Positions 564 through 51,618 of a stretch of DNA of 64,000 bases are shown piece after piece. The notes beneath the pieces were generated by a model. It was not told the DNA's origin. It searched no databases and saw only the letters and a program-made list of their open reading frames with translations. Made by a program: the position numbers and the translations under genes. Source of the stretch: Thermodesulfobacteriota bacterium (GTDB lineage Bacteria > Desulfobacterota > Desulfarculia > JACQYL01); NCBI GenBank assembly GCA_963675595.2, contig CAXXLZ010000003.1:32001-96000 (forward strand). The letters are read 5' to 3'. Positions within the stretch are counted from its first letter, which is position 1, and the number at the start of each line of letters is the position of its first letter.

Positions 564-2180
564 ATGGAGTCGGAAAGAATATTGGTGGAACAGGAGAGCG
601 AGGGGGTACTCAGGCGGGATATCGACTGGAAAGGGGCGTTCTTCGTCGCAATCGGTGTTCCGGCGCTCGTCCTATTTTCCATGGGGGGAATCTCCGCCAC
701 CGTGGGGGCTCCGGCCTGGCTGGTCTGGACGATCTCCGTGACCTTTGGGTTTATTCAGGCGTTCACTTACGCTGAAATCGCCGGCTTGTTCCCGAATAAG
801 TCGGGCGGAGCCTCGGTCTACGGGGCCACCGCCTGGATTCGATACAGCAAATTCACGGCGCCCATTTCCTTGTGGTGCAACTGGCTCGCATGGACTCCGG
901 TTCTGGCCATCGGCGCGGGCCTGGGGGCCGGATATCTATTGTCCATCTTTTTTGCTCCCGACGCGGCCATCAACACCTGGCAGATCACTCTGATCCCTCT
1001 GGACTTCTTGAAAGACGGCCTTTCCATACGGATCAACGCTACATTCATAATTGGAGCGGTGATTCTGCTCGTCGTGTTCAGCGCTCAACATCGAGGGATC
1101 CTCCGGACCGCCAAGATTCAGATCGTGCTGGCCATCGGGGCTCTCCTGCCTCTTCTGATCGTGAGCATTGTTCCCATGATCACCGGAGATGTGGTTCTGG
1201 CCAACTTCAGCCCTTTCACCCCGCTGAAACTGGACGCGGTCGGAAACGTGATTACCGGAGCCTGGGACCGGGAGGGGTGGACCCTCTTCCTGGGCGGCTT
1301 GTTCATTGCCGCTTGGTCCGCCTATGCCTTTGAAACGGCCATCTGTTACACCAGCGAATTCCGAGATCCCGGAACCGATACACCCAAAGCCATCATCTAT
1401 TCGGGCATTTTGAACATCGCCGTCTACATCATTGTTCCCGTTGCGTTTCAGGGCGTGTTGGGAACCCAGGGCATGCTCGAACCCGGAATCGGCGATGGGT
1501 CCGGAGTGGGTAAGGCCCTCGCCGGAATGGTCGGAGGCGGCGTTGTGGTACGAAACATCTTCATTGTGCTGCTGATTTTCACTCTGCTTCTGGCGGTAAT
1601 GACCTCCATGGCGGGTTCGTCCCGCACCCTCTACCAGGGTGGGGTGGACGGCTGGCTGCCCAAATATTTGGCGCATGTGAACAGACACGGCGCCCCCACC
1701 AACGGCATGTGGACGGATTTGACCTTCAACCTGATCCTGCTGCTCATGTCGGACTACCTTTTCGTGCTGGCGGTTTCCAACTGCAATTACTTGATCTTCA
1801 ATTTCCTCAACCTGAATGCCGGGTGGATTCACAGGAAGGACAATCCGGACGTGGTGCGGCCGTGGCGAGCGCCCACCTGGCTCCTCAGCGCCGGAGTGAT
1901 GCTCTCCATGGTCAACGCCTTCCTGCTGGGCGCGGGAGCCAATGTCTGGGGCAAAGGGACTTTGTTGGCCGGTTTCGTGTCCGCCGCCGCGGTGATCCCG
2001 GTGTTTATCTTCCGGCACTACGTGAAAGACAAAGGGAAGTTCCCGGATCATATGTGGATGGACCTTATTCCCGAGGGGAAAAAGGAGCTGGGTCCCACCA
2101 GAGCCGGTGCTTTGCCCTATATCACGCTACTGCTGGGATTCTGTTTCATGTTGGCGGGATATCTGATTTTCTGGACTTGA
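564..2180 (+). CDS. APC-family amino acid/amine permease
   Basis: 538-aa ORF with about 12 hydrophobic segments; AEIAGLFPNKSGG and WSAYAFETA motifs; GGAGG RBS upstream. Confidence 0.9.
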   Translation: MESERILVEQESEGVLRRDIDWKGAFFVAIGVPALVLFSMGGISATVGAPAWLVWTISVTFGFIQAFTYAEIAGLFPNKSGGASVYGATAWIRYSKFTAPISLWCNWLAWTPVLAIGAGLGAGYLLSIFFAPDAAINTWQITLIPLDFLKDGLSIRINATFIIGAVILLVVFSAQHRGILRTAKIQIVLAIGALLPLLIVSIVPMITGDVVLANFSPFTPLKLDAVGNVITGAWDREGWTLFLGGLFIAAWSAYAFETAICYTSEFRDPGTDTPKAIIYSGILNIAVYIIVPVAFQGVLGTQGMLEPGIGDGSGVGKALAGMVGGGVVVRNIFIVLLIFTLLLAVMTSMAGSSRTLYQGGVDGWLPKYLAHVNRHGAPTNGMWTDLTFNLILLLMSDYLFVLAVSNCNYLIFNFLNLNAGWIHRKDNPDVVRPWRAPTWLLSAGVMLSMVNAFLLGAGANVWGKGTLLAGFVSAAAVIPVFIFRHYVKDKGKFPDHMWMDLIPEGKKELGPTRAGALPYITLLLGFCFMLAGYLIFWT

Positions 2181-2909: not shown

Positions 2910-4016
2910 TTAGTCTTTCCAGAACTCCGGACCGTCGTTCACGAAGTCCAGCATGTCCTCGGGTGTCATTCCTTCCAGTCCCAATTTGTCCAGAGTTCTT
3001 CCTTCCGTCCAGAAATCGTGCTTCAGCGCCGAGCAAGCCAGGTTCACAATGGATCTGGTCATGGGGGTTTCCACGCCGACCTCAAGGCCTAATGCGCAAA
3101 GAGGCACCAGGCTGTTGGGCACTTCGTCCAGCACGTGGTGATAGCCCAAGACGTGTTTGGGTGCGGAAAACCCTATGTAGTAGGGGTTGTTCTGCAGGAC
3201 ATGGAAAAGGCTGTCTCCTTCAACGTCATAGCATTCCTTATACCAGGCCAGGATATCGTAAACGGGTACGCCCAGAGCTTGGGCTATGTCGCTCTTCTCC
3301 GCGTCGATCTTTGCCATGACGTTGTCGCAAACGAACTGGGTGATGATGTCGCGGTAATACCTGAGGTCTTCCCCCTTGGCCGCGCGCTCGATGAGTCCGG
3401 AGTTGAGCAGCATGGGAGCGGGATGCACCACCGCGCCGGTATTGTTGATGCTGGTTTCCAGCACATTAACGGCGGAAGCGTATTCCGGATAGATCTCGTT
3501 CATGATTTCGAGCAAACGGGCGTTCCTCGAAGCCGGCAACGCCGCCGCACGCACCCGGTTCTTGACCTTCATGATTTCCACGTGGGCCGGACCTCTGGAC
3601 TCGGTGGCATATAGGAAAGTCTGGCATTCGCCCAGGAGGATATTCTTCTTCAATTGATATCGACGGAAGGTTTGGTAGACCTCGAGAGCTCCACCCGTTC
3701 TCGCGGGGGAGAGAAGGAGGGTCTGACCCTCTTCCAAGCATCCCGTAAGGAGGGAGGCGATGTTCTTGTGGGCCAGTGCGGGAAGAATGACCATAACGAG
3801 GTCTACGCCCTGCACGGCTTCGTCCACGCTGCCGGTGATCAGGTTCAGCTTGGCGAATCCCTCGACATCACCTTCCAGCTTGATGCCTCCGGCGCTTATA
3901 ACCGGGTCGAGTTCCCTTTTATAGAAACTGAACAAGTTGACTTGGTGGCCTTTCAGGCTGATGTGACCGGCGGTGGCCAGTCCGCCGTGGCCTGCTCCGA
4001 GAACCGCTACTTTCAT
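2910..4016 (-). CDS. NAD/NADP octopine/nopaline (opine) dehydrogenase family protein
   Basis: VAVLGAGHGG Rossmann motif; NTGAVVHP and DEVPNSLVP motifs typical of the family. Confidence 0.85.
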   Translation of the reverse strand: MKVAVLGAGHGGLATAGHISLKGHQVNLFSFYKRELDPVISAGGIKLEGDVEGFAKLNLITGSVDEAVQGVDLVMVILPALAHKNIASLLTGCLEEGQTLLLSPARTGGALEVYQTFRRYQLKKNILLGECQTFLYATESRGPAHVEIMKVKNRVRAAALPASRNARLLEIMNEIYPEYASAVNVLETSINNTGAVVHPAPMLLNSGLIERAAKGEDLRYYRDIITQFVCDNVMAKIDAEKSDIAQALGVPVYDILAWYKECYDVEGDSLFHVLQNNPYYIGFSAPKHVLGYHHVLDEVPNSLVPLCALGLEVGVETPMTRSIVNLACSALKHDFWTEGRTLDKLGLEGMTPEDMLDFVNDGPEFWKD

Positions 4017-24807: not shown

Positions 24808-26304
24808 TTACTTTGTCAGGAATTCGTGCGGCTGGATAGTGCTTTCATCCTTGAAAGCAGATTCGAATTGCTCCCGTGAGAGCCATACCTCTCTCAGATT
24901 TGTCCGGACGAGGAGGGCTCCTCTGAGATTAGCGCCTGACAAATCGGCCTCTCTAAGTGAGGCTCCGCTGAGTGAGGCTCCCCTCATATCTGCCCCTCCC
25001 AAATATGCCTTCTCCAAATGAGCCTCACTCAGATTGGCCCCAGCTAGAACAGCTCCTGCAAGATAAGTCTTTTCCAGATGGGCTTCACTCAGATTCGCCT
25101 TCCTTAGATCTGCACTACTTAGATAGGCGCCCCAAAGATCGGCAGCGAACAGTCTGGTCTCATCCAGCTTGGCACCCCACAGATCGGCTGAACGTAAATC
25201 AGCCCCATCCATATCAGCCCTCGTCAGCTTGGCTTTCCTAAGGTCGGCCGCACATAAGCGGGCCCCCCTTAATTTGCTCTCCCACAGGTCGGCACCGCAT
25301 AGGTCGACACCACTTAGATCGGCTTTCGTCAGATCGGCTTTCGTCAGATCGGCTCTCGATAGAATAGCTCTTCTAAGATCACACCCGGACATATCCATAC
25401 CACCCAAATTTGGAGGTTCTCCGTCATGCCCGAATAGACGCAGATATGCCAAAGCAGCTCCGCTCACATCGATGCTTAAGTCTTCTCCCTCGCCGTACTT
25501 TTTTTTCCGCCTGGCGATGACGGTCATGGCCGCCTGGACATCCGTGTCCAGCTTCGCTACGAAGCCTTCTTCGGAGGGCCCTTCGGCCGTGTGATGAGCT
25601 TCTGCTTGCTTCTCAAGACGAGTCCGATGGGGCTTCTCTCTGGGGGCCAGCTCTGTGTCGCAGGAGGGTCTTTTCCTGTTGGCGCTCTCTCGGACAAAGG
25701 CGGAAAGCACTTCCATGACTGTCCAATAGTCCTTGTCCGAGTCCCTGGAAATGCGCTCCAGGGCATAAATGCCTCCAAGTCGTACCTGCATTTTGTCGCT
25801 TCCGAGTTGATCCACGGCGGATTTGAAGCGATCAGTGATTTGGCCTTCCTGCTCGGTCACGAGTTGGTTATAACCGATGAAGAGGGTGATGAGAATAAAA
25901 CCACCGCCCAATATCTTGGCCCAGGTATCCCGAATGTCATTCCGCAGACGTGCAGCGGGTTCGGGATCGAGGCCCATTCGGCTGACTGCCAAGTGCGGGT
26001 ATAGGCAAAGGAACAGAATGGCGGCCACCAACACCGATATGGCCTTGGAAATGATGTCCAATTCAAAGATTGTCGCTATCATTTGGTGCAGCATGGATGA
26101 ACACCAACTATCCACTTCAAGTCGGCTATCCCAAGCGATGAGGCCCGCCGTAGCCGTCACCAGGAACAAATGGTAAGTGAGAAGAGGCCGTTCCCTCATC
26201 CGAGCCCACACCCCCGCTTTCCTGGCTGGCGCTGACCCCAGTTCGTTGGTCTGATTTCCTGCGGGGTCCGTTTCGTTCTCTTTTGGTTTGGTGTCCCGAC
26301 ACAT
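24808..26304 (-). CDS. Membrane-anchored pentapeptide-repeat protein
   Basis: TM segments; QITDRF..AVDQLG...RLGGIYALERI domain; long run of A(D/N)Lxx repeats. Confidence 0.9.
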   Translation of the reverse strand: MCRDTKPKENETDPAGNQTNELGSAPARKAGVWARMRERPLLTYHLFLVTATAGLIAWDSRLEVDSWCSSMLHQMIATIFELDIISKAISVLVAAILFLCLYPHLAVSRMGLDPEPAARLRNDIRDTWAKILGGGFILITLFIGYNQLVTEQEGQITDRFKSAVDQLGSDKMQVRLGGIYALERISRDSDKDYWTVMEVLSAFVRESANRKRPSCDTELAPREKPHRTRLEKQAEAHHTAEGPSEEGFVAKLDTDVQAAMTVIARRKKKYGEGEDLSIDVSGAALAYLRLFGHDGEPPNLGGMDMSGCDLRRAILSRADLTKADLTKADLSGVDLCGADLWESKLRGARLCAADLRKAKLTRADMDGADLRSADLWGAKLDETRLFAADLWGAYLSSADLRKANLSEAHLEKTYLAGAVLAGANLSEAHLEKAYLGGADMRGASLSGASLREADLSGANLRGALLVRTNLREVWLSREQFESAFKDESTIQPHEFLTK

Positions 26305-26337
26305 TTCGGTCTCCTCGGGCTGGATTCCGGAACGTTA

Positions 26338-27420
26338 TTAGGGTGGGGGTTCCACCGTATTCCCGGGTTCGAGGAATTCCTCGGGAAGGATAGTGTGTTC
26401 GTCCGTGATAGCGGATTCGTATTGTCTGCGGGTCAACTTGGCCCCTGTTAGATCGGAGGACCTAAGATCAGCCTCGGTAAGATCGGCCCATCTCAGATCG
26501 GACTCTTTGAGATCGGCTCCAATCAGCCTAGCCCTTCGTAGATCGGCCCTAATGAGCGTGGCGTTCCTGAAATGGCCCCTCATCAACTCGGCCCAATTTA
26601 GATCTGCTCCACTAAGCGTGGCCCCGGACATATCTGCTCCGACCAGGATGGCCTCTCTAAGATCGGCCCCAGTCAAGCATGCTTTCCTAAGATCGCTGCC
26701 GGACAGGTCTACTCCCCGCAAATTAGAAACTCTTTGATCGAAGTCGTCTAGACGAACGTGCGGCAGAGCTGTACTTCTCAGGTCGAGGGGCAGGTCTTCT
26801 CCACTCCCGTATTTCAGTCTTCTTCTGGCAATGACCGTCAAGGCTGCCTGAATGTCCGCACGCACGGCCGGGATGGGTGCTTCGTCCGGAGGGATCAGGG
26901 GCTCGTTTTCGGCGTGTCCGGGTTCTTCCGCCTCCTCTCGTTTGGCGTTCTCCCGAACAAAGGCCGAAAGCACTTCCATGACGGTCCAATAGTCTTTCTC
27001 CGAGTCCTTAGAGATGCGCTCCAGGGCATAGATGCCGCCCAGCCTGATTTCCATTTTCGGGCTGCCGAGCTGATCGATGGCTCGGGTGAACCGATCGGTA
27101 ATTTGGCCTTCCTGCTCAGTCTTGAGCCGATGATAGCCGATAAACAGGGTGATGAGAATGAAAGCCCCGCCGAAAACCTGGGCCCAGGTGGCCCGCGTTT
27201 CATTTTCGAGTTTGATCGCCTCGCCTTCGTAGAGATGGAGTTCGGCAATTCGTGAAGGGGGAAAAATAAATATATAATAGACGGCGAATCCGGTGACGGT
27301 AAGTACCAGCACGATGCCCAGAGGTTTCTTTAGACGAGACCACGCCTTCCTTACAGTCCGGCTCACCCGTTGGCTGCCGGACCACAGGCTGCGCTTTGCC
27401 TTTTCCAAGAACGCCTTCAT
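26338..27420 (-). CDS. Membrane-anchored pentapeptide-repeat protein (tandem paralog)
   Basis: Same EQEGQITDRF...DYWTVMEVLSAFVRE domain and a shorter ADLxx array; start uncertain. Confidence 0.88.
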   Translation of the reverse strand: MKAFLEKAKRSLWSGSQRVSRTVRKAWSRLKKPLGIVLVLTVTGFAVYYIFIFPPSRIAELHLYEGEAIKLENETRATWAQVFGGAFILITLFIGYHRLKTEQEGQITDRFTRAIDQLGSPKMEIRLGGIYALERISKDSEKDYWTVMEVLSAFVRENAKREEAEEPGHAENEPLIPPDEAPIPAVRADIQAALTVIARRRLKYGSGEDLPLDLRSTALPHVRLDDFDQRVSNLRGVDLSGSDLRKACLTGADLREAILVGADMSGATLSGADLNWAELMRGHFRNATLIRADLRRARLIGADLKESDLRWADLTEADLRSSDLTGAKLTRRQYESAITDEHTILPEEFLEPGNTVEPPP

Positions 27421-27645
27421 GGTTTCCGCTCCCCAATGTTTCACCCACCCCACGCACAGCCCGCCCTTGGCGAAAACGGTATTGGACGAATCCGGCGATG
27501 TCAAGAAGGAATATCCATTCTCGCCCATGGCGGGGCATGGTCACTAGAATACCTACAAACAAGAAGGTCTTGGGGCGCGTATCGGATAGGATATCTGATT
27601 TCTGCAAAAAAGCGGAGGCAGTCTGCCGGCAGGCCCGCCCGGGGA

Positions 27646-27725
27646 GCCGCTCCGCCGAAGGCGGTGCGGCCACACCATCAAAATTTGCGGGGGGTCCGGG
27701 GGGCGCTTTTTAAAGCGCCCCCCGG
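27646..27725 (+). repeat. Repeat family B, partial divergent copy 3
   Basis: GCCGCTCCGCCGAAGGCGGTGCGGC hairpin followed by CCGGGGGGCGCTTT/AAAGCGCCCCCCGG hairpin. Confidence 0.65.
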
Positions 27726-27799: not shown

Positions 27800-27876
27800 C
27801 TTGGATTACAGAGCACGTCGCAGTGACGAGGGATGAAGCGCAACGCAGCAGATCGCGTTTTGCATCAACCTGTCAG
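27800..27876 (-). repeat. Dispersed repeat family A, copy 3
   Basis: Reverse strand reads AAAACGCGATCTGCTGCGTTGCGCTTCATCCCTCGTCACTGCG. Confidence 0.7.
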
Positions 27877-30413
27877 AAGCCTTCGCGTTTCTCCTTCCCG
27901 GCGGCCAGAGGAATGTCCAGGGCCTGGGAGGTGGCGATGGTGATGCTGCGCATGTCCTCGGGTTCGAGGTTGTGCACGAAGGTCTTGCCCGTGCAGCGGG
28001 CGATGATGGCCGTTTCCTGGGCCGTGCCTTTGATCCAATGCTCTACGGCGCGTGCGCGGTCTTCGCGGCTGGTATCGCCGGTGAACTTCATGGAGCCGTC
28101 GGCGATCATGCCGCCCATGGCGATGGCCATGGCCACGGAGAAGATGCCTGCGTTGCAGTTGATGGCCAGGGCCTTGGCCACGTCCGTGCCGGACCGCAAT
28201 CCGCCGAAATAGAGCAGGGCGATTTCTTCTTCCATGTTCATGCGTCGGAGGATGCGGATGGCGTCGCGCATGACCGTGAGGTCCGGGGCGCCCTTGAGTT
28301 CGGGCCAGGCCGTTTCGATGCCCGAGGTGCCGTCCAGGAGCAGGAAGTCGAACTTGTGATCCAGGGCGTAGGGAATGGCCTGCTCGAGGGCGGGAGCGGC
28401 CACGCTCAGGCCCAGGAGTTGATTTTCTTTGGCGCGCTTGAGTTCGACCTTCTTGAAGTCTTTACCCAGCACGTAGACCAGTCCGTCGGCGTCGGGGTCC
28501 GGGGTTTGCCGGTCCGGGGTGAGCAACTGGAGCCACATGGGTTTGTCGCCGTCGGGTCCCGCCTGGGGCAGGGGCTTGAATCCCACGTAGGCGGAACCGC
28601 TGTTCACCAGTCCTGCGGCCAGAGCCTGTTTGAGCTCGTCCGCGGCATCGTCGAACCCGGTGAACAGATAGGGCTGTTTCAGCTCGAGCTTGCCGGCGAG
28701 GACCGTGCGGGTGGAGCAGGCTTCCCGGTAGGGGTCGATGACCAGCCGGGTGAGGGCGGCGGACAGGAACACCACGTCGTCCAGGTGGGCCGGGCGGGTT
28801 TCCGGGAACGGGTTCTTTCTGGGTTTCAGTCGTTCGAGGGTGACCTGGCGGAGGATTTGGGCGTCGCCGGGTTCGGTGCGGGCCATGATGTGGATATGTT
28901 CCCGCGTGCGCCTCGAATAATCCGAATGGCCGGTTTCCGCGTCGCAGCGCAGGCATCGGAGAGCCTGTCGTTTAGCGGTATCCGCGTCGTAGGCCGTTTC
29001 GCACTCGGTCATGGCCGAGGGATCGCTTCCCACGCCCAGGAAAGGCTGTTCCTCTCTCGGGAGTTTTTCCCAGGCCGGGTCCTGAGCCAACGGGATTCTG
29101 CGGGTGCGGAAGGGGATGCTGTAGGGCAGGGGATTTTCCCTGCCTTCGAGAAAGGCGTGCACGTAGTAGGCCGCCCGGTGTCCTTGTCCCATGGCGGTCA
29201 CGATGGCGGAGGGACCGGAGGACGCGTCGCCGGCGGCGAACACCTTGGGATCGGAGGTGATCATGGTTTCCGCATCGGTGCGGACCAGGCCGCGCTGAAG
29301 CAGGCCGGTATTTTCCAGTTCCTCGTTTTGCGCCATCTGGCCGATGGCCAACAGCACGGCGTCCGCCTTGACGGTTTGGGTCTGTGACGGATCATACGTG
29401 GGGTTGAACCGGCCGTCGTAGTCGAAGACCGACTGACAGCGCATGAGCTCAACGCCCGTTACCTTGCCGTTTTCGCTGAGAATTTGCTTGACGCCCCAAG
29501 AGGGTACGATTTGGATGCCTTCTTTTTCGGCTTCTTCGATCTCGTGCTTCCACGCGGGCATTTCTTCCCGGGCTTCCAGGCAGTAGAGCTCGACCTTTTG
29601 CGCTCCGGCGCGGAGGGCGGTGCGGGCCATATCCATGGCCACGTTGCCGCCGCCGATGACCGCTGCGGTGCCGCTCAAGCCCACCTTGGCTCCGCCGCTC
29701 ATGTCCATGAGGAAGTCCAGTCCGTACAGTCCGGCCGGTTTTTCGGCTTCACCGGGCACGCCCAGGCGACGGTCGGTCCAGAGTCCGATGGAAAGCACCA
29801 CGGCGTCGTGGCGCTTTTTGAGTTCTTCCAGGGTGATGTCTTTGCCCAGTTTCCGGTTCAGATGGACCTTGATGCCCGGGCAGTGCGTCAGCAGGCGATC
29901 GAGGTCGTCCTGAATGGTGCTCTCGGGCAGACGGAAGCGGGGAATGACCCGCATCATGCCGCCGAGGCTCTCGCGGGCTTCATACACGTGGACTTCGTAG
30001 CCTTCGTGAGCGAGATCGTGAGCGGCCGTGAGACCCGCGGGACCGCCGCCGACGATGCCCACGGTCTTGGACTGGGTTACGCCGACTTCGGGAAAGCGGT
30101 AGTCATGGCCCAGTTGGTCCATGATGAAGCGCTTCAGGTTGCGGATGGTCACCGGGGCGTCGCTCTCGCCGCGCCGACATTGGGTTTCGCAGGGTTTGGC
30201 GCACACCCGTCCGCACACGGAGCTGAAAGGGTTGGTGGCGGTAATGACTTCGAGGGCTTCCTCGTACTTTCCTTCCCAGATCAAGCCGATGTAGGACGGG
30301 GCGTCGGTGCCCACCGGGCAGGCCTTCTGACAGGGAGCGGGAATCCACTGAATGTCCGGGTATTCATCGTAAAGCTTCACCGGGTCTAAGGCCGGAATTC
30401 TTGCATTTGCCAT
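27873..30413 (-). CDS. GltD-like Fe-S/FAD NAD(P)H oxidoreductase fused to a degenerate glutamate-synthase FMN-barrel domain
   Basis: PCQKACP, CGRVCAKPCETQC, GGGPAG, GGGNVAMD, FAAGD and RCLRC motifs; C-terminal GGLRSGTDVAKALA and HNLEPED. Confidence 0.85.
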   Translation of the reverse strand: MANARIPALDPVKLYDEYPDIQWIPAPCQKACPVGTDAPSYIGLIWEGKYEEALEVITATNPFSSVCGRVCAKPCETQCRRGESDAPVTIRNLKRFIMDQLGHDYRFPEVGVTQSKTVGIVGGGPAGLTAAHDLAHEGYEVHVYEARESLGGMMRVIPRFRLPESTIQDDLDRLLTHCPGIKVHLNRKLGKDITLEELKKRHDAVVLSIGLWTDRRLGVPGEAEKPAGLYGLDFLMDMSGGAKVGLSGTAAVIGGGNVAMDMARTALRAGAQKVELYCLEAREEMPAWKHEIEEAEKEGIQIVPSWGVKQILSENGKVTGVELMRCQSVFDYDGRFNPTYDPSQTQTVKADAVLLAIGQMAQNEELENTGLLQRGLVRTDAETMITSDPKVFAAGDASSGPSAIVTAMGQGHRAAYYVHAFLEGRENPLPYSIPFRTRRIPLAQDPAWEKLPREEQPFLGVGSDPSAMTECETAYDADTAKRQALRCLRCDAETGHSDYSRRTREHIHIMARTEPGDAQILRQVTLERLKPRKNPFPETRPAHLDDVVFLSAALTRLVIDPYREACSTRTVLAGKLELKQPYLFTGFDDAADELKQALAAGLVNSGSAYVGFKPLPQAGPDGDKPMWLQLLTPDRQTPDPDADGLVYVLGKDFKKVELKRAKENQLLGLSVAAPALEQAIPYALDHKFDFLLLDGTSGIETAWPELKGAPDLTVMRDAIRILRRMNMEEEIALLYFGGLRSGTDVAKALAINCNAGIFSVAMAIAMGGMIADGSMKFTGDTSREDRARAVEHWIKGTAQETAIIARCTGKTFVHNLEPEDMRSITIATSQALDIPLAAGKEKREGF

Positions 30414-30427
30414 GGTATTCAAGCTCC

Positions 30428-32386
30428 TTAGTGTGTGCTCGTGGGACCGAATTGTTCACGATACTCGGGCGCGTAGGGCAGCCGGGTCATGGCGGCGGCT
30501 TCTGGCGTGAGGGCCACCATGTCTTTCCGGGAGAGCTGCCTGATGTCTTCATATCCCAACGCGTGAACGATGGCCGCGATCTGCCAACGGATGGCTTCCA
30601 GATAGCGGTGCACCATCAGGGCACGGCGTTCGATCTCGAAGCGCTCCACGTGATCCTTGTCCTGGGTCGCGGCTCCGATGAAGCATCTGCCCACGCTGCA
30701 CTGCATACAGGTGATGCAGCCGGCCGCGATGAGGGTCGAGGTGCCCAGGCCCACGGCGGCGGCGCCCAGAGCCACGGCTTTGGCGGTGTCCACGCCGTCT
30801 TTGACTCCTCCCATGAGCACGACGGGGAGTTGACCTTTGGCGTCGATTTCCTCCAGTCCGTCCAGGGCTTCCTGGATGGCCGCGAGGGTGGGGATCCCCA
30901 CGTATTCGAGTACTTCGTTACCGGCCGCTCCCGTACCGCCCTGCAATCCGTCCAGCTCGATGAAGTCCAGGCCGTCCTTGAGGGCGATCTTGATGTCGTC
31001 GCGAATGCGTCCCGCGCCCAGCTTGATGCTGATGGGAACACGCCAGCCCACGGCTTCACGGAATTCCTGCACCTTCATGATGAGGTCGTCTCCACCCAGA
31101 ATATCGGGATGGCGCGACGGAGACCGGAGGTCCATGTACGCGGGAATGCCGCGAATGGCCGCGATTTCTTCGGTGAGCTTTTCCGCCATGAGCTGTCCGC
31201 CGAGGCCGGGTTTAGCTCCCTGGGAAATGTAGATTTCCAGTCCGTCGGAGCGCTTCATGTCGTGGACGTTCCAGCCGAGACGTCCGGGGAGGCATTGAGC
31301 GATGAGCTGTCTGGCCTCGGCGCGTTCGGCGGAGAGCATGCCGCCCTCACCGGAGTTTTCGGAGATGCCCGAAAGACGGGAGGCGATGCCCAGGGCCGTT
31401 TTCATCTGGCCGCTCAGGGCTCCGAAACTCATGGGGGCGATCATGACGGGCATGCTCAGGTCCAGAGCCTTGCCGCCGTGCTTGTCGCCGATGAAGGTGC
31501 GGAGATTCACTTTGGACACCACGTCCGGGTCGCTGCCGATCTTGGACAGGTCCGCTTTGAAGGCGACGTCCGGGAAGTGGGGTATATGGCGGGCGGCGCC
31601 GTAGCCGCGGATGCGATAGCGTCCGATGATGGACTTGACGCGGATGTCTTCCTGAACCTTGGGGTTCCAGTAATCCTCGGCGCCGCCGGAAAAACTGTAA
31701 AAAGGCATGTTGCGGATGCGGGGTTCCGGATTGGCGTATCGGAGGAGCTTGCCCGCGCAGACGATTTTCTTGAATTTGCCGCCTTTGTAAGGGATGTCGA
31801 ACCGGTCCAGGAACTCCATGACGCTGTCCTGGTCGCGGGATTCGATGTCCACAAGCTGGGCGTCGTTGCCGAGGGACTGGACATTGCCCCCCACGTAGAT
31901 TTCGCCGCCCATCATGTCTTCGCCGACTTTTTCTCCGGAGTTTCCCACGATGATGAGGCGGCCGCCGTACATCATGTAGCCGGCCATGAAGTTGGAGTTC
32001 CCCGCGCAACAGAGGGTCCCCTTTTTCATCACCTGCCCGGCGCGGGAACCGATGTTTCCGCGAACCACGATGTCGCCGCCGCGAAGTCCCTCACCGGCGA
32101 TGGCTCCGGCGTTTCCGCCGACCACGATGGTTCCCTGAAACATGTTGTCGCCCACGCCCCAACTGACGTTCTTCTCCACTTCGACGCAGGGTCCGTCGGT
32201 GAGGCCGCCGCAATAGTAGCCCGCGGAACCGCGAATCTTGACTTTGATGGGGTTGATGAGACCCACACCGATATAGTGTCGGGCGTCCGGGTTCACGACT
32301 TCCACATTGTGGTGAGTGGACCCGTAGCCGCGAATCAATTCATTGGCCTTACGCACGGTCATGGTCGATAGGTCGATGCTTACCAT
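30428..32386 (-). CDS. Fused GXGXG (GlxC/MgsB-like) and FMN-binding glutamate synthase domain (GlxD/MgsC-like) protein
   Basis: N-terminal GXGXG beta-helix; MSFGALS, SGEGG, QGAKPGLGG and CITCMQCSVGRC motifs. Confidence 0.88.
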   Translation of the reverse strand: MVSIDLSTMTVRKANELIRGYGSTHHNVEVVNPDARHYIGVGLINPIKVKIRGSAGYYCGGLTDGPCVEVEKNVSWGVGDNMFQGTIVVGGNAGAIAGEGLRGGDIVVRGNIGSRAGQVMKKGTLCCAGNSNFMAGYMMYGGRLIIVGNSGEKVGEDMMGGEIYVGGNVQSLGNDAQLVDIESRDQDSVMEFLDRFDIPYKGGKFKKIVCAGKLLRYANPEPRIRNMPFYSFSGGAEDYWNPKVQEDIRVKSIIGRYRIRGYGAARHIPHFPDVAFKADLSKIGSDPDVVSKVNLRTFIGDKHGGKALDLSMPVMIAPMSFGALSGQMKTALGIASRLSGISENSGEGGMLSAERAEARQLIAQCLPGRLGWNVHDMKRSDGLEIYISQGAKPGLGGQLMAEKLTEEIAAIRGIPAYMDLRSPSRHPDILGGDDLIMKVQEFREAVGWRVPISIKLGAGRIRDDIKIALKDGLDFIELDGLQGGTGAAGNEVLEYVGIPTLAAIQEALDGLEEIDAKGQLPVVLMGGVKDGVDTAKAVALGAAAVGLGTSTLIAAGCITCMQCSVGRCFIGAATQDKDHVERFEIERRALMVHRYLEAIRWQIAAIVHALGYEDIRQLSRKDMVALTPEAAAMTRLPYAPEYREQFGPTSTH

Positions 32387-32454
32387 TGGATGTTCGTCCC
32401 TTCCTTAAGAGCTGCCGTAGAGCCCTGGTTGCGGGTGAAAAATGGATCGAAGAG

Positions 32455-33375
32455 TTAATTTCCCCGGGTCCACAGTCCGTAAGTCAGGGGGGGCGGCTCG
32501 GTGGTGTCGAGAGCTTTGCCCGGGAACAGGCGGTTGATCCCCACTTCCTCGGAAGAAACGGCGATCAGATCGTCGGTTTCGTACAACACCATGGGCTTGG
32601 CCGCGAGTTTGTCCTTCGCGTATCCAATGGAGTCGCGGGTGGCCACCAGGTAGGAAAACGTGCCGTCCAATTCTTCCAGCGAGGTCTTGAGGACCTCTTC
32701 CAGCGTGGCCCCCTGTTTCATCTGGTAGGCCAGATACACGGCGATGAGCTCCGTGTCGTTTTCCGTCATGAATTCCATGCCCTTGCGCTCCAGGCGTCTT
32801 CTCATGATCCAGTAGTTGGTCAACTGTCCGTTGTGCACCGTGGAGACGTCGGCGAATCCCGTGGCCCAGAAGGGGTGGGACGTATTGGGATGAACGCCGG
32901 ATTCGGTGGCGAGGCGAATGTGGGAAAGTCCGTGGTCGCCGTCGAACGCTCCGATTCCATACCTGGCGGAAACCTGATGCGGGAGTCCCACGTCCTTGAT
33001 GATGTCGATGTTGGAACCCACGGACACGATTTGCGCCACACGCCCCAGGTTGTAGGAAAACTGCTGAACGTCGCCGGAGTATTTGAGGCGAACGGCGAAG
33101 GTGAGACCCATGATCTCTTCCTTCATGATTTCCGCGCCCTGGTCGGCGAGGGCCTGCTTGATCCGGGCGACGTCCTGATGCTCGGCGTCGTCGGCATCGA
33201 TGAAGAAACGCATCTTCAGTTCGCCCGGTTTCGGCTCGTCGTAAAGGGCCCATCCCGCCGAATCGGGTCCCCGATGCACCGTGGCGTTGAGCATTTCGGT
33301 GAGCGCCTGGCCCGTGGTCATGCCGAGGTTGGGACGTTTGTCGTGCTTAAACAGCAATCCTGCGATAGCGCACAT
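32455..33375 (-). CDS. Class II glutamine amidotransferase domain protein (GlxB/MgsA-like)
   Basis: MCAIAG N-terminal nucleophile Cys; HRGPDSAG, HIRLATES, HPF, HNGQLTN and NDTE motifs. Confidence 0.9.
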   Translation of the reverse strand: MCAIAGLLFKHDKRPNLGMTTGQALTEMLNATVHRGPDSAGWALYDEPKPGELKMRFFIDADDAEHQDVARIKQALADQGAEIMKEEIMGLTFAVRLKYSGDVQQFSYNLGRVAQIVSVGSNIDIIKDVGLPHQVSARYGIGAFDGDHGLSHIRLATESGVHPNTSHPFWATGFADVSTVHNGQLTNYWIMRRRLERKGMEFMTENDTELIAVYLAYQMKQGATLEEVLKTSLEELDGTFSYLVATRDSIGYAKDKLAAKPMVLYETDDLIAVSSEEVGINRLFPGKALDTTEPPPLTYGLWTRGN

Positions 33376-33502
33376 GAATACCTCCTCAAATGTATCTTGC
33401 TTTGCGCAAACGTTTGCTCACCACGGGGTGGAATCCGGGAACAATAAGGTGGGTGGTTCAGGGCCTCCCTTGGTGAATCGCAATGGGCTAAACAACCCAC
33501 GT

Positions 33503-33531
33503 ACTGTACCCAAAGCCCGATTTCGTGTCAA
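33503..33531 (-). promoter_or_regulatory. Putative sigma70 promoter of the glx/mgs-like operon
   Basis: TTGACA-N17-TACAGT on the minus strand. Confidence 0.6.
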
Positions 33532-33549
33532 GAACACAGGTCAAGAATT

Positions 33550-33564
33550 TTTCCTGTGGTGAAA
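33550..33564. promoter_or_regulatory. Putative operator 1 (TTTCCTGTGGTGAAA)
   Basis: 14/15 identical to 34509-34523; both lie ~19 bp upstream of a TTGAC -35 box. Confidence 0.55.
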
Positions 33565-33660
33565 ATCGAGTTCCGTCCAGGCGAGCGGCCGGGCTGGTGA
33601 AAGGGTTTCGCCGGACAACCCGCCGCTCAATGGTCGGCTTTGGGGAAACGTCCGGCGACG

Positions 33661-34281
33661 TCAGGATTCTTCCGGGAATCGGGGATATACAATCATCGCG
33701 AGGAACTTGATCGGCAGCTTGACCAGTTCTTCCGGTCCGTGAGGCACATCGGCGTCAAAGAAAAGAGAATCACCCGGCGACAGATTGTAGGTTTTGTTCC
33801 CATGTCTGTAAAGCACCACTCCCTCCAGGACATAGGTGAACTCCATGCCGGTATGCTGAAAAATGGGGAAAACTTCCGAGCTCTCCGTAAGGGTGACCAG
33901 GTAGGGCTCGATGGCTATGCTCTTTCCCACGCTGTGACCCAAGAGCTGATAAAGATGTCCGGCACGGCTGCCTCGTCGTTCGATGGCCAGTCCTTCTCCG
34001 GCCTTGACGTAACTTGCGTCTCTTTCTTCCTCGTATTTTCGGAAGAAGGCGGTGACCGGGATATGGAGGGCCGTGGACAGCGCCTGCAAGGTGGCCAGGG
34101 AAGGGGAGGCGATGCCGTTTTCAATTTTTGACAACATGCCCGTGGAGAGTCCCGCGAGCTTGGCCAATTCGGCTACGGTCAGATCGATGCGTTTTCTAAA
34201 GGCGCGTACTTCGTGCCCGATGGCGACTTCCAATTTATTGCTCCGCGCAGCGGGTTCCCCTTGGGGGTTCCTTTGTTCCAT
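33661..34281 (-). CDS. XRE-family HTH-cupin transcriptional regulator
   Basis: HTH LTVAELAKLAGLSTGMLSKIENG..SPSLATL; cupin PGDSLFFDADVPHGP. Confidence 0.93.
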   Translation of the reverse strand: MEQRNPQGEPAARSNKLEVAIGHEVRAFRKRIDLTVAELAKLAGLSTGMLSKIENGIASPSLATLQALSTALHIPVTAFFRKYEEERDASYVKAGEGLAIERRGSRAGHLYQLLGHSVGKSIAIEPYLVTLTESSEVFPIFQHTGMEFTYVLEGVVLYRHGNKTYNLSPGDSLFFDADVPHGPEELVKLPIKFLAMIVYPRFPEES

Positions 34282-34628: not shown

Positions 34629-35894
34629 TCAAGGGCCGGGCCGAAAGGAATCCGGTGGAAATTGCAGGGTGGCGAAATAATCCTGGACGGTTTCTTCTCT
34701 GCGAATCAGTTCCACCACGCCGTCCGTTCGAAGGAGGAGTTCTTTGGGCCTTAATCGGCCGTTGTAGTTGAAACCCATGGCGTGCCCGTGGGCGCCGGTA
34801 TCGTGGATCAGAAGCAGGTCTCCTTCCGCGAGGGGAGGCAGAGGTCGTTGAACGGCGAACTTGTCGTTGTTTTCGCAAAGGGAACCCACCACGTCGGCGG
34901 TCAGGCTCAAAGGTGAGTCATCCTTCCCGTGCACGGTAATGTGGTGGTAGGCTCCGTAGATCCCGGGTCTCATCAGGGAAGACATGCAGGCGTCCACGCC
35001 CACGTATTCCCTGTAAATGTGTTTCCGGTTGATGACGCGCGAAACCAGTGCGCCGTGGGGACCCGTCATGTATCTGCCGCTTTCCATGAACAGGCTCGGC
35101 ACGCCGCCGTGTCGGTCTTCGAAGGCGCGGCACAGGTCCAGGGTTTCCTTGCCGAGGGCGGCCACGTTCAGGGGCCCGTCCTCCGGCCGGTAGGGAATGC
35201 CCAACCCGCCCCCGATGTTGATAAAATCAAAAGTGATGCCCAGTTCGCCCGAAAGGCGTTCCACCTGCTCCAACAGCATCTTCACCGTAGCAACCATGTA
35301 GGTGTGGTCGAGTTCGTTGGAACAGAGCATGGTATGCAACCCGAATCGCGTCGCCCCACGATTCATGGCCTGTCTGTAGGCTTCCGGGAGCTGGTCGTGG
35401 CTCACGCCGTACTTGGCTTCTTCAGGGTTGCCGATGATGGCGTTTCCGGTTCTGCGAGGACCGGGATTGTAGCGGAAGCAGATGGTTTCCGGCATGACCG
35501 GGACTTTGGGGACCAGCGTCAGGTCGTCTAGATTCAGGAGGCAACCGCCGTCCTCCGCCGACACGCGGAGCTCCTCCAACGTGGTGTTGTTGGAGGTGAA
35601 CATGATCTCATGGCCTCGGGCGCCCGCCTCCCGGCTCAGGATCAACTCGGGAATGGAACTGCAGTCGAACCCGAACCCCATTCCGCGCATAATGGATAGG
35701 ATGGCCGGGTTGGGCAGGGCCTTCACGGCGAAGTATTCCCGAAAGCCCCGGATACCGGCAAACGAGCTTTTCAGGTATTCGGCCGTTTCGCGGATGCCCT
35801 GTTCGTCGTAGATATGAAAAGGCGTGCCGAAGTGTTCGGCGGTCTCTTCGAGTATGGGTGCAAGTCGGTTCCGGAAGCCCTCTGACATGGGCAT
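34629..35894 (-). CDS. lysA: Diaminopimelate decarboxylase
   Basis: FGTPFHIYDE, YFAVKA (PLP Lys), NIGGG, ESGR, CENND and GAHG motifs. Confidence 0.88.
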   Translation of the reverse strand: MPMSEGFRNRLAPILEETAEHFGTPFHIYDEQGIRETAEYLKSSFAGIRGFREYFAVKALPNPAILSIMRGMGFGFDCSSIPELILSREAGARGHEIMFTSNNTTLEELRVSAEDGGCLLNLDDLTLVPKVPVMPETICFRYNPGPRRTGNAIIGNPEEAKYGVSHDQLPEAYRQAMNRGATRFGLHTMLCSNELDHTYMVATVKMLLEQVERLSGELGITFDFINIGGGLGIPYRPEDGPLNVAALGKETLDLCRAFEDRHGGVPSLFMESGRYMTGPHGALVSRVINRKHIYREYVGVDACMSSLMRPGIYGAYHHITVHGKDDSPLSLTADVVGSLCENNDKFAVQRPLPPLAEGDLLLIHDTGAHGHAMGFNYNGRLRPKELLLRTDGVVELIRREETVQDYFATLQFPPDSFRPGP

Positions 35895-36128
35895 GGCGCA
35901 TTCCTCCCTTTCGTTGGCGCGGGGCCGGCTTGGAAAAACGAGTGCCTTCGACGTGCGACGCGCGGCGTTCGGGAGCCCCGGGTTCTCGTTTCCGAAAAAA
36001 ACGAAAAACTCTATCTAACAGGTTTTTCCCGAGTTGAAAAGAACGCAAACGGAAAGCACTTCACCGACGCGGCTCGTTGGGGTATGAGCCCGCGCCGGGA
36101 AGCGCGGAGATTGAACCCGTCGGTTATT

Positions 36129-36698
36129 TCAGGAAGGGTGTCGAGGGCCGTGGTTCTCTCCGAACACGTCCGCCGTGAAGACGTACAGTTCCACTCCCCG
36201 TTTCCAGTCGCCGGGGGCGAGGCCCGCTTTGATACAGGTGTGGTCCAGGAATTCCGAACGATCCCAACCCTGCTCCACGGCAACCTGGGGCAGAAGGACG
36301 CCTCGGTTGAATCCTTTAATAATATAGATACCGTGGGTGCCCACTTGGATCTCGTTGGGATCCTCCACCCGCCTGAGGGGAGAGAGCACGGAAATCTCAA
36401 TGTCGATCTCGTCCAGTTCCTTTTCCCGAAGAGGGGGGAAACGAGGGTCGTCGAAAGCGGAGCAGAGGGCCATTTCCCGGACGGTGAGGTACAGGGGCTT
36501 TTCTCCCTCGAAGAGCCCGATGCAGCCCCTGAGTCCGTTCTTGGTGTGGAGCGAAACGAAGACTCCTCGCCGTAGATGGAGTTCCTCATTATCGGGAGGA
36601 GGCGACGAGGGGTTTTTATTGTACAATCTGCACTCGATCGCTTCTCTGGCGAGTTCCAGAAGGGCCCTGTGTGACGAATCGCTGAGTTGTTCCCCCAC
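36129..36698 (-). CDS. AmmeMemoRadiSam system protein A (AMMECR1 domain)
   Basis: GVFVSL...LRGCIG, DPRF, EISVLS and LLPQVA motifs; GTG start with AAGGAGG RBS. Confidence 0.92.
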   Translation of the reverse strand: MGEQLSDSSHRALLELAREAIECRLYNKNPSSPPPDNEELHLRRGVFVSLHTKNGLRGCIGLFEGEKPLYLTVREMALCSAFDDPRFPPLREKELDEIDIEISVLSPLRRVEDPNEIQVGTHGIYIIKGFNRGVLLPQVAVEQGWDRSEFLDHTCIKAGLAPGDWKRGVELYVFTADVFGENHGPRHPS

Positions 36699-36713
36699 GT
36701 TGGAAGCCTCCTT

Positions 36714-36837
36714 GACAGATCGACGGCAGGCGCGATCTGCGGTGTCGGACTTCATTCCTCGTGACTGCGGCATACTTCGCGCCCCATTCCTTGGAATTTG
36801 CCCGCCTTGTATCTCGTTGTCGTTCACCGGCCCGTCA
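36714..36837 (+). repeat. Dispersed repeat family A, copy 4
   Basis: CGCGATCTGCGGTGTCGGACTTCATTCCTCGTGACTGCGGC...GCCTTGTATCTC, collinear with copy 1. Confidence 0.7.
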
Positions 36838-37010
36838 CAGCCGGACTTTTCCAGTGGCTGCCGAAATCTCCGGGAAATGTTGCGTTGAGTTTAAGGCAGT
36901 ATAGATGGGATTCTCATAGCTGTCAAAATCCGGACGACACGGCGGTTGCGCCCGGAATCGAGATCCGCCGCCGAACCACCGAACAGCAGCCGTTGATGCA
37001 TGCTTTCATA

Positions 37011-37039
37011 TTGACAATCAAGGGGCGGGGTGATACAAG
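37011..37039 (+). promoter_or_regulatory. Putative sigma70 promoter of the polyamine operon
   Basis: TTGACA-N17-TACAAG with extended TG. Confidence 0.5.
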
Positions 37040-37167
37040 GTCTGCTTTTACATCTGCCGGGGCAAAGCGGTACAGCTCATCCTGCGAACAACGCGCGGGA
37101 ACCCTTCTCGATGAGTCCACCCGAAAGGTCCGCCGGCCGAATTATCCTCGGGAAGGAGGTACACGGG

Positions 37168-37545
37168 TTGAAGGCACTTGGAAGACACCTGATTCTCGAG
37201 TTTTACGGCTGTACACCGGAAGCGCTCGACCATAAAGAAAAGATCGAAGAAATTCTGGTGAGTGCTGCTGAAAACGCCGGTGCACATGTGATTCACCCCT
37301 TCTTTCACAAGTTTTCGCCTCAGGGAGTCAGTGGGATGGTCATTATCGCCGAATCCCACCTTTCGATACATACTTGGCCGGAATACGGATATGCGGCGGT
37401 GGACGTATTCGTATGCGGTGATTACGTAGATTGCGATCTAGCTTACGAAACGATTCGTTCCGCTTTAGAGGCCAAGAGCAGCCAAATTATGGAGTTCAAA
37501 CGAGGCGCCTTGGATATCCCTCGTGAGGAACTCAGGCACAAGTGA
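37168..37545 (+). CDS. speD: S-adenosylmethionine decarboxylase proenzyme (class 1B, SpeD/SpeH)
   Basis: LGRHL, FSPQGVSG, AE-SHLSIHTWPE pyruvoyl site and DVFVCG; TTG start after AAGGAGGT. Confidence 0.92.
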   Translation: MKALGRHLILEFYGCTPEALDHKEKIEEILVSAAENAGAHVIHPFFHKFSPQGVSGMVIIAESHLSIHTWPEYGYAAVDVFVCGDYVDCDLAYETIRSALEAKSSQIMEFKRGALDIPREELRHK

Positions 37546-37609
37546 CACCAAAGGCCCGGACCGGCCGGATACTGCGGTCGGCACGATCACCACGTAAGTC
37601 GCCTTGCAT

Positions 37610-38002
37610 ATGGAGGAGCGGCAATTGGAATTGCGTGAACGATACACGAATGAAGAGGCCTGGGGTATCCTCTCGAGCATTGACATCCGGGGTTGCAGCG
37701 CGGAACGAATCACGGACAAGGATACGGTTCGAGACTTCGCTCAGGCCCTTTGCAAAGTTATAGACATGCGTCCCTATGGAGAGCCGGTGGTGGTTCATTT
37801 CGGCAGCGGCGAAGTGGAAGGATTTTCTTTGGTCCAGTTGATCGAGACTTCTCTGATCAGCGGGCATTTCGCCAACGAATCCAATAGGGCGTTCATCGAT
37901 ATTTTCAGCTGCAAGTATTATGAGCCCGAAGTAGCGGCGAACTTCTGTCTAGAATATTTCAAGGGGACCGAATACACCATCAACGTTCAACTGAGAAAAT
38001 AG
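37610..38002 (+). CDS. Second, divergent pyruvoyl-dependent SpeD-family decarboxylase
   Basis: IDMRPYGEP..VHFG, QLIET-SLISGHF and DIFSCK motifs. Confidence 0.8.
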   Translation: MEERQLELRERYTNEEAWGILSSIDIRGCSAERITDKDTVRDFAQALCKVIDMRPYGEPVVVHFGSGEVEGFSLVQLIETSLISGHFANESNRAFIDIFSCKYYEPEVAANFCLEYFKGTEYTINVQLRK

Positions 38003-38012
38003 GATTCCGGGG

Positions 38013-38921: not shown

Positions 38922-38934
38922 CCGAGATAGGCCT

Positions 38935-39612: not shown

Positions 39613-39652
39613 ACACGGATCCTCCAAACTCCACGGTGAGCAAACCTCTTCC

Positions 39653-40501: not shown

Positions 40502-40608
40502 AGCGGGCGGCGGCCTCTTTGCCGACCCGATGACTCCCGGTGCGGATTTTGCCCGAGTCGTTCGCTTTGTCGATGAATTCATGCTCAACGAGAGCCTGGG
40601 AGACGACC

Positions 40609-51529: not shown

Positions 51530-51618
51530 CTACCATTCCGACAGGTTTCCTATGAGCCGAGAATGTGGCAAGGGTGATTCAGGCAGGTCCGCTTAGACGG
51601 GGCGCGAGGAGAGAGGAC

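Follow-up and report, generated by a model that had tools for sequence, protein, structure and literature searches.

A predicted relative of glutamate synthase and N-methylglutamate synthase that carries its own NAD(P)H-type reductase, with genomic links to methylamine use

The genome of a Thermodesulfobacteriota bacterium (6.79 Mb in 3 contigs, here C1 to C3; 98% complete) carries a four-gene operon in the 64-kb stretch C3:32001-96000, which we call the window and in whose coordinates positions are given unless a contig is named. All four genes lie on the minus strand. They encode a 206-aa PuuR-like regulator with an XRE-type helix-turn-helix and a cupin domain (33661..34281; Pfam HTH_3, E 3.6e-13, and Cupin_2, 2.3e-12), a 306-aa N-terminal nucleophile (Ntn, class II) amidotransferase subunit of the GlxB/MgsA-like kind (32455..33375; GATase_6, 3e-15, and GATase_7, 6e-15), a 652-aa fusion of a GXGXG beta-helix (residues 34-171, 8e-17) with a flavin mononucleotide (FMN) synthase barrel (Glu_synthase, residues 303-612, 1e-84; gene at 30428..32386), and a GltD-like flavoprotein whose whole open reading frame (ORF) spans 849 aa (27873..30422; Fer4_20, 2e-23, and Pyr_redox_2, 4.5e-30). 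These E-values exclude chance matches. A sequence-only reading of this DNA had proposed the same gene order, which ORFs and Pfam searches confirm, with coordinates that coincide with the ORF ends. Its description of the last gene as a GltD-like flavoprotein holds for the GltD/NfnB-like reductase module with its Fe-S, flavin adenine dinucleotide (FAD) and NAD(P)H sites (residues 1 to ~479; 28986..30422, minus strand), but it overlooked a second, degenerate Glu_synthase-like TIM barrel behind an RCLRCD segment (residues 480-849; 27873..28985, minus strand), which emerged from an AlphaFold (AF2) model and Foldseek. Since an identical database protein (P0001) is 846 aa long, the GltD-like protein probably starts at the ATG at 30413. 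Gaps of 68 nt and ~5-14 nt separate the three enzyme genes, which are flanked on either side by a sigma-70-like promoter 5' of the amidotransferase gene (TTGACA-17-TACAGT, 33503..33531, minus strand; 10/12 positions in a consensus scan) and by a 13-bp GC-rich palindromic hairpin ~150 nt past the last gene (27696..27725; terminator-like scan), the likely operon end, both being consensus matches only.

The amidotransferase starts with MCAIAG, placing a Cys directly after Met1, and its R (HIRLATES), N-G (HNGQ) and D (NDTE) motifs align with those of GlxB-type proteins, to which it is 35-43% identical. To the amidotransferase of the genome's own glutamate synthase (GOGAT) it shows 23% identity over part of its length (E 2e-4), and with the N-terminus of E. 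coli GltB it gave no BLAST match; GATase_2 and Glu_syn_central (Pfam, E<=0.01) are absent from all three enzyme proteins. The GXGXG-FMN protein retains GEGG, QGAKPGLGGQL with the following Arg, and DGLQGGTGA, of which GEGG, QGAKPGLGGQL and the Arg align with E. coli GltB, as well as a C-x2-C-x2-C-x4-C motif that contains the C-x5-C-x4-C of GltB. By comparison with GltS structures, the FMN-site motifs would be the catalytic residues and the cysteines 3Fe-4S ligands. Over the FMN domain, identity is 37-41% with GlxD-type proteins and 31-33% with both E. coli GltB and the GOGAT of this genome.

Among species-representative genomes, a scan found 80 related loci, 47 of this type (types B, C and D) and 33 of the GlxBCD type. 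The C-x2-C-x2-C-x4-C motif is present in all 38 scored FMN proteins of types B, C and D, whereas C-x5-C-x4-C occurs in none of the 33 GlxD-type proteins (the anchor was located in 17, 10 of which have no Cys there at all), and by this measure the present type is predicted to be redox-coupled in design. The Gln of QGAKPGxGGQL is found in 37 of the 38, the remaining one being a fragment. A quick FMN-domain tree recovers three groups, namely GOGAT, GlxD-type (12 sequences) and this type (17), whose mutual order it does not settle; fusions without a GltD module nest within the Desulfobacterales branch, with the Planctomycetota form branching basally. The domain order, identities and motifs agree with the proposal of the sequence-only reading that the operon is of the GlxBCD/MgsABC-like kind with a fusion and an added reductase. 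Taken at the sequence level, the clade is of Glx/Mgs pedigree with a predicted GOGAT-like, electron-accepting synthase site, even where no reductase is fused, and the operon appears to encode an enzyme akin to both glutamate synthase and N-methylglutamate synthase that brings along an NAD(P)H-type reductase of its own.

The best solved relatives of the reductase module are 9bov_A, 9n5u_A (NfnA), 8oh5_C, 4ylf_B and the GltD chain 2vdc_G, and the GltD chains 2vdc_G and 6s6s_G match at E ~1e-56; the nearest NCBIfam models of the GltD-like protein, PRK12771 ('NAD(P)-binding protein') and GltD-like ones, all score under their cut-offs. Six N-terminal cysteines (C31, C35, C70, C74, C78 and C82) are invariant across 17 sequences, as are C490 and C493 of the RCLRCD segment, which align with RCLEC/RCMSC of 9bov_A and 9n5u_A; six plus this pair make eight invariant cysteines, which would suffice for two [4Fe-4S] clusters as in those two structures. 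The ~370 additional C-terminal residues (~480-849) are highly conserved and give a weak Glu_synthase match (27.9 bits), and no solved sequence relative of the protein extends past residue 544. AlphaFold with a 21-sequence alignment models this region as a TIM barrel (pLDDT 87, pTM 0.81), for which Foldseek retrieves FMN-binding TIM barrels (flavocytochrome b2, IMPDH, glycolate oxidase and the GltS structure 1ofd; TMq ~0.5). In the alignment it lacks the GEGG and QGAKPG loops and retains FGGxRSGTDxAK and a GlxD-like helix, ARCTGKTxVHNLEPED. It is thus probably a degenerate, non-catalytic paralogue of the synthase barrel, which may take the place of the GltB central domain.

The core recurs in several architectures, with gene calls at the related loci being our own ORF picks. 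Thirty loci have the full core, with all five domains and a fused GltD module, and a further 11 have a partial core cut at contig ends. Three (type C: L044, L050 and probably L057) join GXGXG, FMN domain and barrel in one protein without a GltD module, and three (type D: L061-L063, from Planctomycetota and an unclassified bacterium) have a free-standing barrel of 364-391 aa, likewise without GltD module; the 33 GlxBCD-type loci (L064-L096) show the ordinary three genes for GATase, GXGXG and FMN proteins. One database protein (P0056, 1486 aa) fuses both large operon proteins. The best 120 database matches are 50-100% identical and mostly 830-875 aa long, and a barrel profile run against 1.84 billion representatives recovers 126 clusters (50% identity) at E<=1e-30, with lengths of ~850, 1031, 1486 and 345-430 aa and many fragments; 584 tblastn-confirmed stretches include GlxD-type genes, which share the pattern HNLEPED, and so do not measure the size of this family. 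The hosts comprise Desulfobacterales, Alpha- and Gammaproteobacteria, Gaiellales/Actinomycetota, Latescibacterota, Spirochaetes and Planctomycetota. The suggestion of the sequence-only reading that this is an enzyme of anaerobes does not hold, as most of the 47 related loci come from metagenome-assembled genomes (MAGs) of Alpha-/Gammaproteobacteria and Actinomycetota. Within the window's own class the distribution is patchy, a true second barrel being present in 2/95 genomes. We also noted a third Glx subtype (L116/L117), in which a GntR regulator, sometimes a DAO gene, and a 490-aa gene resembling glutamine synthetase (GS) precede GlxBCD; its amidotransferase is the GlxB type nearest to the window's (43%), and in the genome G004 it is found 10 kb away from the reductase-fused type, beside a Tdm-like gene (DUF1989+GCV_T).

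For gene neighbours we considered loci with at least 3 kb on either side, 27 of this type and 27 of the GlxBCD type. A GmaS-like ligase gene adjoins 10 of the former and 24 of the latter. Amt with PII (6/27) and MttB-family genes (5/27) accompany this type, and neither was seen at the 27 GlxBCD-type loci, while XRE-cupin regulators (4/27 against 9/27), FolD (2/27 against 4/27), Fhs (2/27 against 3/27) and Tmm-like genes (1/27 each) occur beside both. The MttB-family neighbours are of the non-pyrrolysine kind and come with corrinoid and pterin methyltransferases. The closest relative, L017, combines the core with genes for an MttB-family protein, a corrinoid protein, a pterin-binding methyltransferase, an XRE-cupin regulator, a GS-like protein and an ABC transporter. 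In the sister genus (G011) an MttB/corrinoid/pterin trio 77-81% identical to that of L017, a GS-like gene, permease, Usp and Octopine_DH-like genes (these three 0.6-5 kb upstream of the operon), an XRE-cupin gene and the operon lie within ~22 kb. L059 together with L116 carries Tdm-like, GntR, GS-like-GlxBCD, Amt, FolD, flavin monooxygenase (FMO)/Tmm-like, XRE-cupin, core, GS-like and Fhs genes. SoxD genes, which mark N-methylglutamate (NMG) dehydrogenase (mgd), are present in 5/5 aerobic-type genomes tested, in none of them adjoining the operon, and are uninformative here. The methylamine link drawn in the sequence-only reading finds support in the relatives, where the neighbours are methylated-amine and C1 genes and point to methylamine use, possibly without oxygen.

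The regulator reaches 57.9 bits against the PuuR model, under the cut-off of 211; homologues with 58-73% identity adjoin 9 of the 47 loci of types B, C and D, and others with 42-65% identity, mostly 58-65%, adjoin 10 of the 33 GlxBCD-type loci. Regulators beside GlxBCD+GmaS operons are thus mostly 58-65% identical to the window's, while the enzymes are just 35-40% identical, and since regulator identity so far exceeds that of the enzymes, this likeness across both operon types hints at a common effector.

On another contig, the same genome encodes a GS-like protein (C2:360134-361546) that passes TIGR03105 (495.7 bits; cut-off 469.6), has as its best solved relative 9qur_A, 'glutamate--methylamine ligase' (387.7 bits, against <=240 for true GS), and is 72-76% identical to the operon-adjacent ligases of L044, L050 and L057. 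The sequence-only reading had found neither gmaS nor mgd genes; for the 64-kb window this is true, no gmaS adjoining the operon there, and for the genome it applies only to mgd, for which no SoxD-type marker was found. In divergent orientation to the ligase gene lie an MttB-superfamily ORF of 404 aa, very diverged in sequence, and the gene for a DAO-family oxidase of 446 aa (together C2:356833-361546). This oxidase is 64% identical to one encoded ahead of the GS-like-GlxBCD operon at L117, a locus from an alphaproteobacterial MAG, and might act in the pathway as an amine or N-methyl oxidase. A candidate operator, ATTTTCACC-N3-GGAAAAAT (33547..33566, minus strand; pattern scan), abuts the -35 box of the operon promoter. 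In the 6.79 Mb of the genome the pattern ATTTTCACC-N2/3-GGAnAAAT has two perfect matches, the operon site and C2:359841-359859, upstream of the unlinked GmaS-type gene, with 0 one-mismatch and 11 two-mismatch sites; the pattern was derived from these very two sites, whose spacers differ by 1 nt, and the link that such a common promoter element makes between operon and ligase gene is suggestive only. Conservation of the operator in relatives was too weak to claim, a loose scan (<=3 mismatches) giving ~45 matches in 1.38 Mb, a few of them 5' of the operon (in L039, L045, L052 and L069). Across the five genomes of the order, few and related, ligase and operon are both present in two, and the other three have neither the operon nor a close ligase homologue (G009 holds only a 33%-identical GS-type match).

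The genome also carries a pyrrolysine system (C2:116848-125918, L106), with mttB (C2:117612-119009) and mtbB (C2:121787-123166) bearing one in-frame TAG each and each adjoining a corrinoid protein gene, a sigma54 two-component pair upstream, and tRNA-Pyl (CUA) at C2:125847-125918. With a tRNA-Sec (UCA) gene at C1:971408-971505 as well, the organism is likely to decode selenocysteine in addition to pyrrolysine. The genome yielded no MtmB family member, and since mttB, mtbB and a trimethylamine N-oxide (TMAO) permease are present, monomethylamine should arise without a known sink. TAG-containing mtbB occurs in 3/5 other anaerobic carriers, and MtmB-family matches in 3/5, none with an in-frame stop; over the six anaerobic carriers examined, own genome included, TAG-containing mtbB thus stands at 4/6 and TAG-containing mtmB at 0/6. 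The genome of L017 (G102, a Desulfobacterales MAG) has eight mtbB copies with one in-frame TAG apiece and three MtmB-family matches without in-frame stops. The TMAO-permease-type transporter (538 aa; 564..2180, plus strand; NCBIfam NF053774, 845 bits, cut-off 690) is loosely associated with the operon, 24 kb away, and has homologues with 65-67% identity in the GlxBCD loci L086, L088 and L079. Likewise loosely associated is a 368-aa Octopine_DH-family dehydrogenase (Pfam; 2910..4016, minus strand), which is 75.5% identical to the one beside the operon of G011, the sole member of the permease-Usp-Octopine_DH trio to be compared. The trio occupies 564-4016, and the ~24 kb between it and the operon include ruvABC and a DDE transposase.

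Elsewhere in the window, the other flank of the operon (34629-41532) holds a polyamine group with genes for a lysA-like decarboxylase (279.5 bits, just short of the lysA cut-off of 297.9), AMMECR1, two AdoMet decarboxylases and two spermidine synthases, interspersed with rpe and an FGE-sulfatase-family gene. We treat this adjacency as incidental, the lysA-like gene having no match in the 80 related loci. Directly downstream of the operon lie genes for pentapeptide-repeat proteins of 498 and 396 aa (24808-27528 and 21987-23138), with a DDE_Tnp_1 transposase nearby. Farther away, 51565-58196 encodes a GAF/PAS histidine kinase and a sigma54 response regulator followed by two HGD-D genes (2-hydroxyacyl-CoA dehydratase D-component-like), and then by enoyl-CoA hydratase, short-chain dehydrogenase/reductase and thiamine diphosphate-enzyme genes.

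The operon is not the cell's main, housekeeping GOGAT, because the genome has a glnA-linked split GOGAT and glutamate dehydrogenase (GDH; C2:468 kb), and because another GOGAT exists in all six carriers. The split cluster at C2:2840-2845 kb consists of a 378-aa ORF without Pfam match at E<=1e-4 and weakly similar to the window amidotransferase, a ferredoxin+FMN protein (546 aa) and a GXGXG+GltD+Fer4 protein (772 aa), preceded by a GAF-sigma54 activator and followed by NAD synthase (nadE) and GlnA. Searched with a GlxD-type query, the other carrier genomes (5/5) each gave a GltB-type match in an open frame of ~1500-1740 aa, and in 3/5 there was no further GlxD-type gene besides this type.

From the domains, motifs, operon conservation, family placement and neighbourhoods described above, we infer a complex with a particular substrate, direction and electron path. 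The three enzyme genes would form one complex of the Glx/Mgs lineage that works like glutamate synthase, a single complex being suggested by fusions, P0056 joining both large proteins and L044 and L050 joining GXGXG, FMN domain and second barrel. The ligase partner, the regulator and the neighbours lead us to take gamma-glutamylmethylamide (GMA) as the amide and N-methylglutamate as the product. The GmaS-type ligase encoded elsewhere would make GMA from methylamine, glutamate and ATP, and the Ntn amidotransferase (Cys1) would hydrolyse it. The released methylamine would pass to the FMN barrel and form an imine with 2-oxoglutarate, reduction of which would give N-methylglutamate. NAD(P)H would supply the electrons, which would travel by way of the FAD and two [4Fe-4S] clusters in the GltD-like module to the synthase Fe-S cluster and FMN, the net reaction being GMA + 2-oxoglutarate + NAD(P)H -> N-methylglutamate + glutamate + NAD(P)+. 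The second barrel would probably serve as a non-catalytic scaffold, and the XRE-cupin protein would regulate the operon. Modules predicted for amide hydrolysis, imine reduction and NAD(P)H electron supply are all present with motifs intact, and we hold this NAD(P)H-driven, GOGAT-style transfer of methylamine from GMA to 2-oxoglutarate as a tentative proposal, somewhat short of an even chance.

A more specific version, which we consider unlikely, would place the operon at the core of an oxygen-independent N-methylglutamate pathway with corrinoid-dependent demethylation to methyl-tetrahydrofolate. Here monomethylamine left over from pyrrolysine-dependent demethylation of trimethylamine (TMA) and dimethylamine (DMA), in the absence of MtmB, would be activated by GmaS and fixed onto 2-oxoglutarate by the reductase-coupled synthase. 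The N-methyl group would then pass to tetrahydrofolate via the non-pyrrolysine MttB-family protein, corrinoid protein and pterin methyltransferase of the L017/G011 trio, which would stand in for the oxygen-linked NMG dehydrogenase, with GDH regenerating 2-oxoglutarate. A chemical doubt attaches to this version, as the known non-pyrrolysine MttB enzymes act on quaternary, not secondary, amines.

Several observations weigh against the transfer of methylamine from GMA to 2-oxoglutarate as proposed above. No GmaS-like gene lies near the operon at 17 of the 27 well-flanked loci of this type, and the 'GlxBCD' loci that serve for comparison are called MgsABC-like from gene order and GmaS adjacency. 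The genome, 98% complete, yielded neither the SoxD marker of NMG dehydrogenase (mgd), a search whose control matched 0/14 control genomes, nor the MttB/corrinoid/pterin trio of L017 and G011 (best match the pyrrolysine MttB, 32-34%), so that the fate of N-methylglutamate here is unexplained. The type is no plain replacement of MgsABC, since a GlxBCD-type set coexists with it in G004 (10 kb apart) and G007, and the quick tree, which does not settle the order of the three groups, sets its FMN clade beside GlxD as a sister and not inside it. At the Gln position of QGAKPGxGGQL, 31 of 33 GlxD-type proteins have Met, while E. coli GltB has Gln like the present synthase, and the Fe-S cysteines and Amt/PII neighbours suit an ammonium-assimilating GOGAT equally well. 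These last points lead to the main rival, a second glutamate synthase isozyme, glutamine-dependent and using NAD(P)H, on a Glx-type scaffold, which would assimilate ammonium under particular conditions, for instance when methylated amines or other nitrogen sources release it. All catalytic elements of NADPH-GOGAT are present (Cys1 amidotransferase, GEGG, QGAKPGxGGQL with Gln, C-x5-C-x4-C, GXGXG and the GltD-like protein), Amt with PII adjoins 6 of the 27 loci, and the NCBIfam name of the partner ligase's family is 'type III glutamate--ammonia ligase'; yet that ligase scores far above true GS against the solved methylamine ligase, all six carrier genomes examined hold another GOGAT (this one also GlnA and GDH), the XRE-cupin regulator is common with mgsABC-like operons and no sigma54 activator is present as at the glnA-linked GOGAT, and the neighbours are C1 and methylamine genes. 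We accordingly regard an isozyme as a serious candidate that is nonetheless rather unlikely.

The same reductive amide transfer might instead serve another amine, with the gamma-glutamyl amide of ethylamine, dimethylamine, a polyamine or the like yielding an N-alkylglutamate. The PuuR-like regulator, PuuD-like class I amidotransferases after the ligase in L035, L036 and L043, the occurrence of several Glx subtypes within one genome and the DAO-family oxidase beside the ligase gene (64% identical to that of a GS-like-GlxBCD locus) would all fit, as would the polyamine genes adjoining the operon in the window, were they conserved; the lysA-like gene has 0 matches in 80 related loci, however, the recurrent neighbours are C1 and methylamine genes and among solved structures the ligase comes closest to a methylamine ligase, which leaves another amine improbable. 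An oxidative or otherwise different redox enzyme, oxidising the C-alpha of glutamate or N-methylglutamate with NAD(P)+ or using the second barrel as a true second active site like dihydropyrimidine dehydrogenase (DPD), is more improbable still. A GltD-like module followed by a TIM barrel does recall DPD, which is among the sequence matches, the barrel retains the FMN-phosphate-type motif FGGxRSGTDxAK, and the structures nearest to the reductase module come from Nfn/Stn-type complexes. Yet GEGG and QGAKPG, the loops in which the family's catalytic residues sit, are missing from the barrel. It is also found where there is no GltD module, either fused to the synthase (L044 and L050) or free-standing (L061-L063), and an amidotransferase that is intact has a plausible role only if the enzyme works synthetically.

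Methylated amines are a major source of both nitrogen and carbon in seawater and sediments, and the electron handling of N-methylglutamate synthase is unsettled, its redox cofactors being given as unknown (PMC6237917); a natural variant with a built-in NAD(P)H reductase and GOGAT-type Fe-S cysteines offers a directly testable model. Pyrrolysine-dependent TMA and DMA methyltransferases have been described in Deltaproteobacteria (PMC8318568), and the available part of that article contains no occurrence of mtmB or glutamate, mentions gmaS only in a reference title and does not address the fate of monomethylamine. Were the oxygen-independent version true, it would provide a pyrrolysine-free monomethylamine route in sulfate reducers and other anaerobes and would name the long-missing electron donor of an NMG synthase; were the enzyme a plain second GOGAT, it would still represent an undescribed and widespread GOGAT architecture. 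In the literature searched, which mostly did not cover subscription journals, neither a Glx/Mgs enzyme with a fused reductase nor GmaS in such anaerobes was the subject of any paper we found, and no characterised enzyme of such architecture turned up.

Set beside known systems, the reductase module shares with NfnB/DPD-type modules (9bov_A, 9n5u_A NfnA, 8oh5_C, 4ylf_B and 1gt8) a shifted RCLxC cysteine pair after the flavin domains; those modules serve hydrogenase, formate dehydrogenase, Nfn and pyrimidine enzymes, and none is joined to a Glu_synthase-type barrel. The split 'archaeal-type' GOGAT, represented by the genome's own copy on C2, is alike in having three genes with the reductase fused into one subunit, but its order is GATase, ferredoxin+FMN and GXGXG+GltD+Fer4 without a second barrel, whereas in the operon GXGXG is fused to the FMN domain and the GATase is GlxB-like. 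GltB/GltD (Azospirillum 2vdc/6s6s, E. coli gltBD) resembles the present enzyme in FMN-site motifs, C-x5-C-x4-C, GXGXG and a GltD-type subunit, and differs from it in its GATase_2 and Glu_syn_central domains, domain order, FMN-domain sequence (31-33% identity) and the lack of the extra Cys in the cluster motif; the operon, moreover, is not glnA-linked and always had another GOGAT beside it in the six genomes checked.

In Methylobacterium extorquens DM4 the mgsABC-gmaS operon stands with divergent mgdABCD (PMC6237917). Its MgsABC (= GlxBCD) is like the present system in the PurF-like Ntn amidotransferase, the order GATase, GXGXG and FMN, the recurrent GmaS-type ligase neighbour, the XRE-cupin regulator family (~58-65%) and the FolD, Fhs and Tmm-like neighbours. 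The premise of the sequence-only reading that MgsABC needs no external reductant goes back to older enzymology of the Pseudomonas NMG synthase. MgsABC consists of three separate polypeptides, whereas here GXGXG and FMN domains are fused and a GltD-like reductase and second barrel are added; the present genome has no mgd marker, and in the quick tree the type forms an FMN clade separate from GlxD proteins, which lack the Fe-S cysteines (0/33) and carry Met (31/33) where this type has the cysteines (38/38) and Gln.

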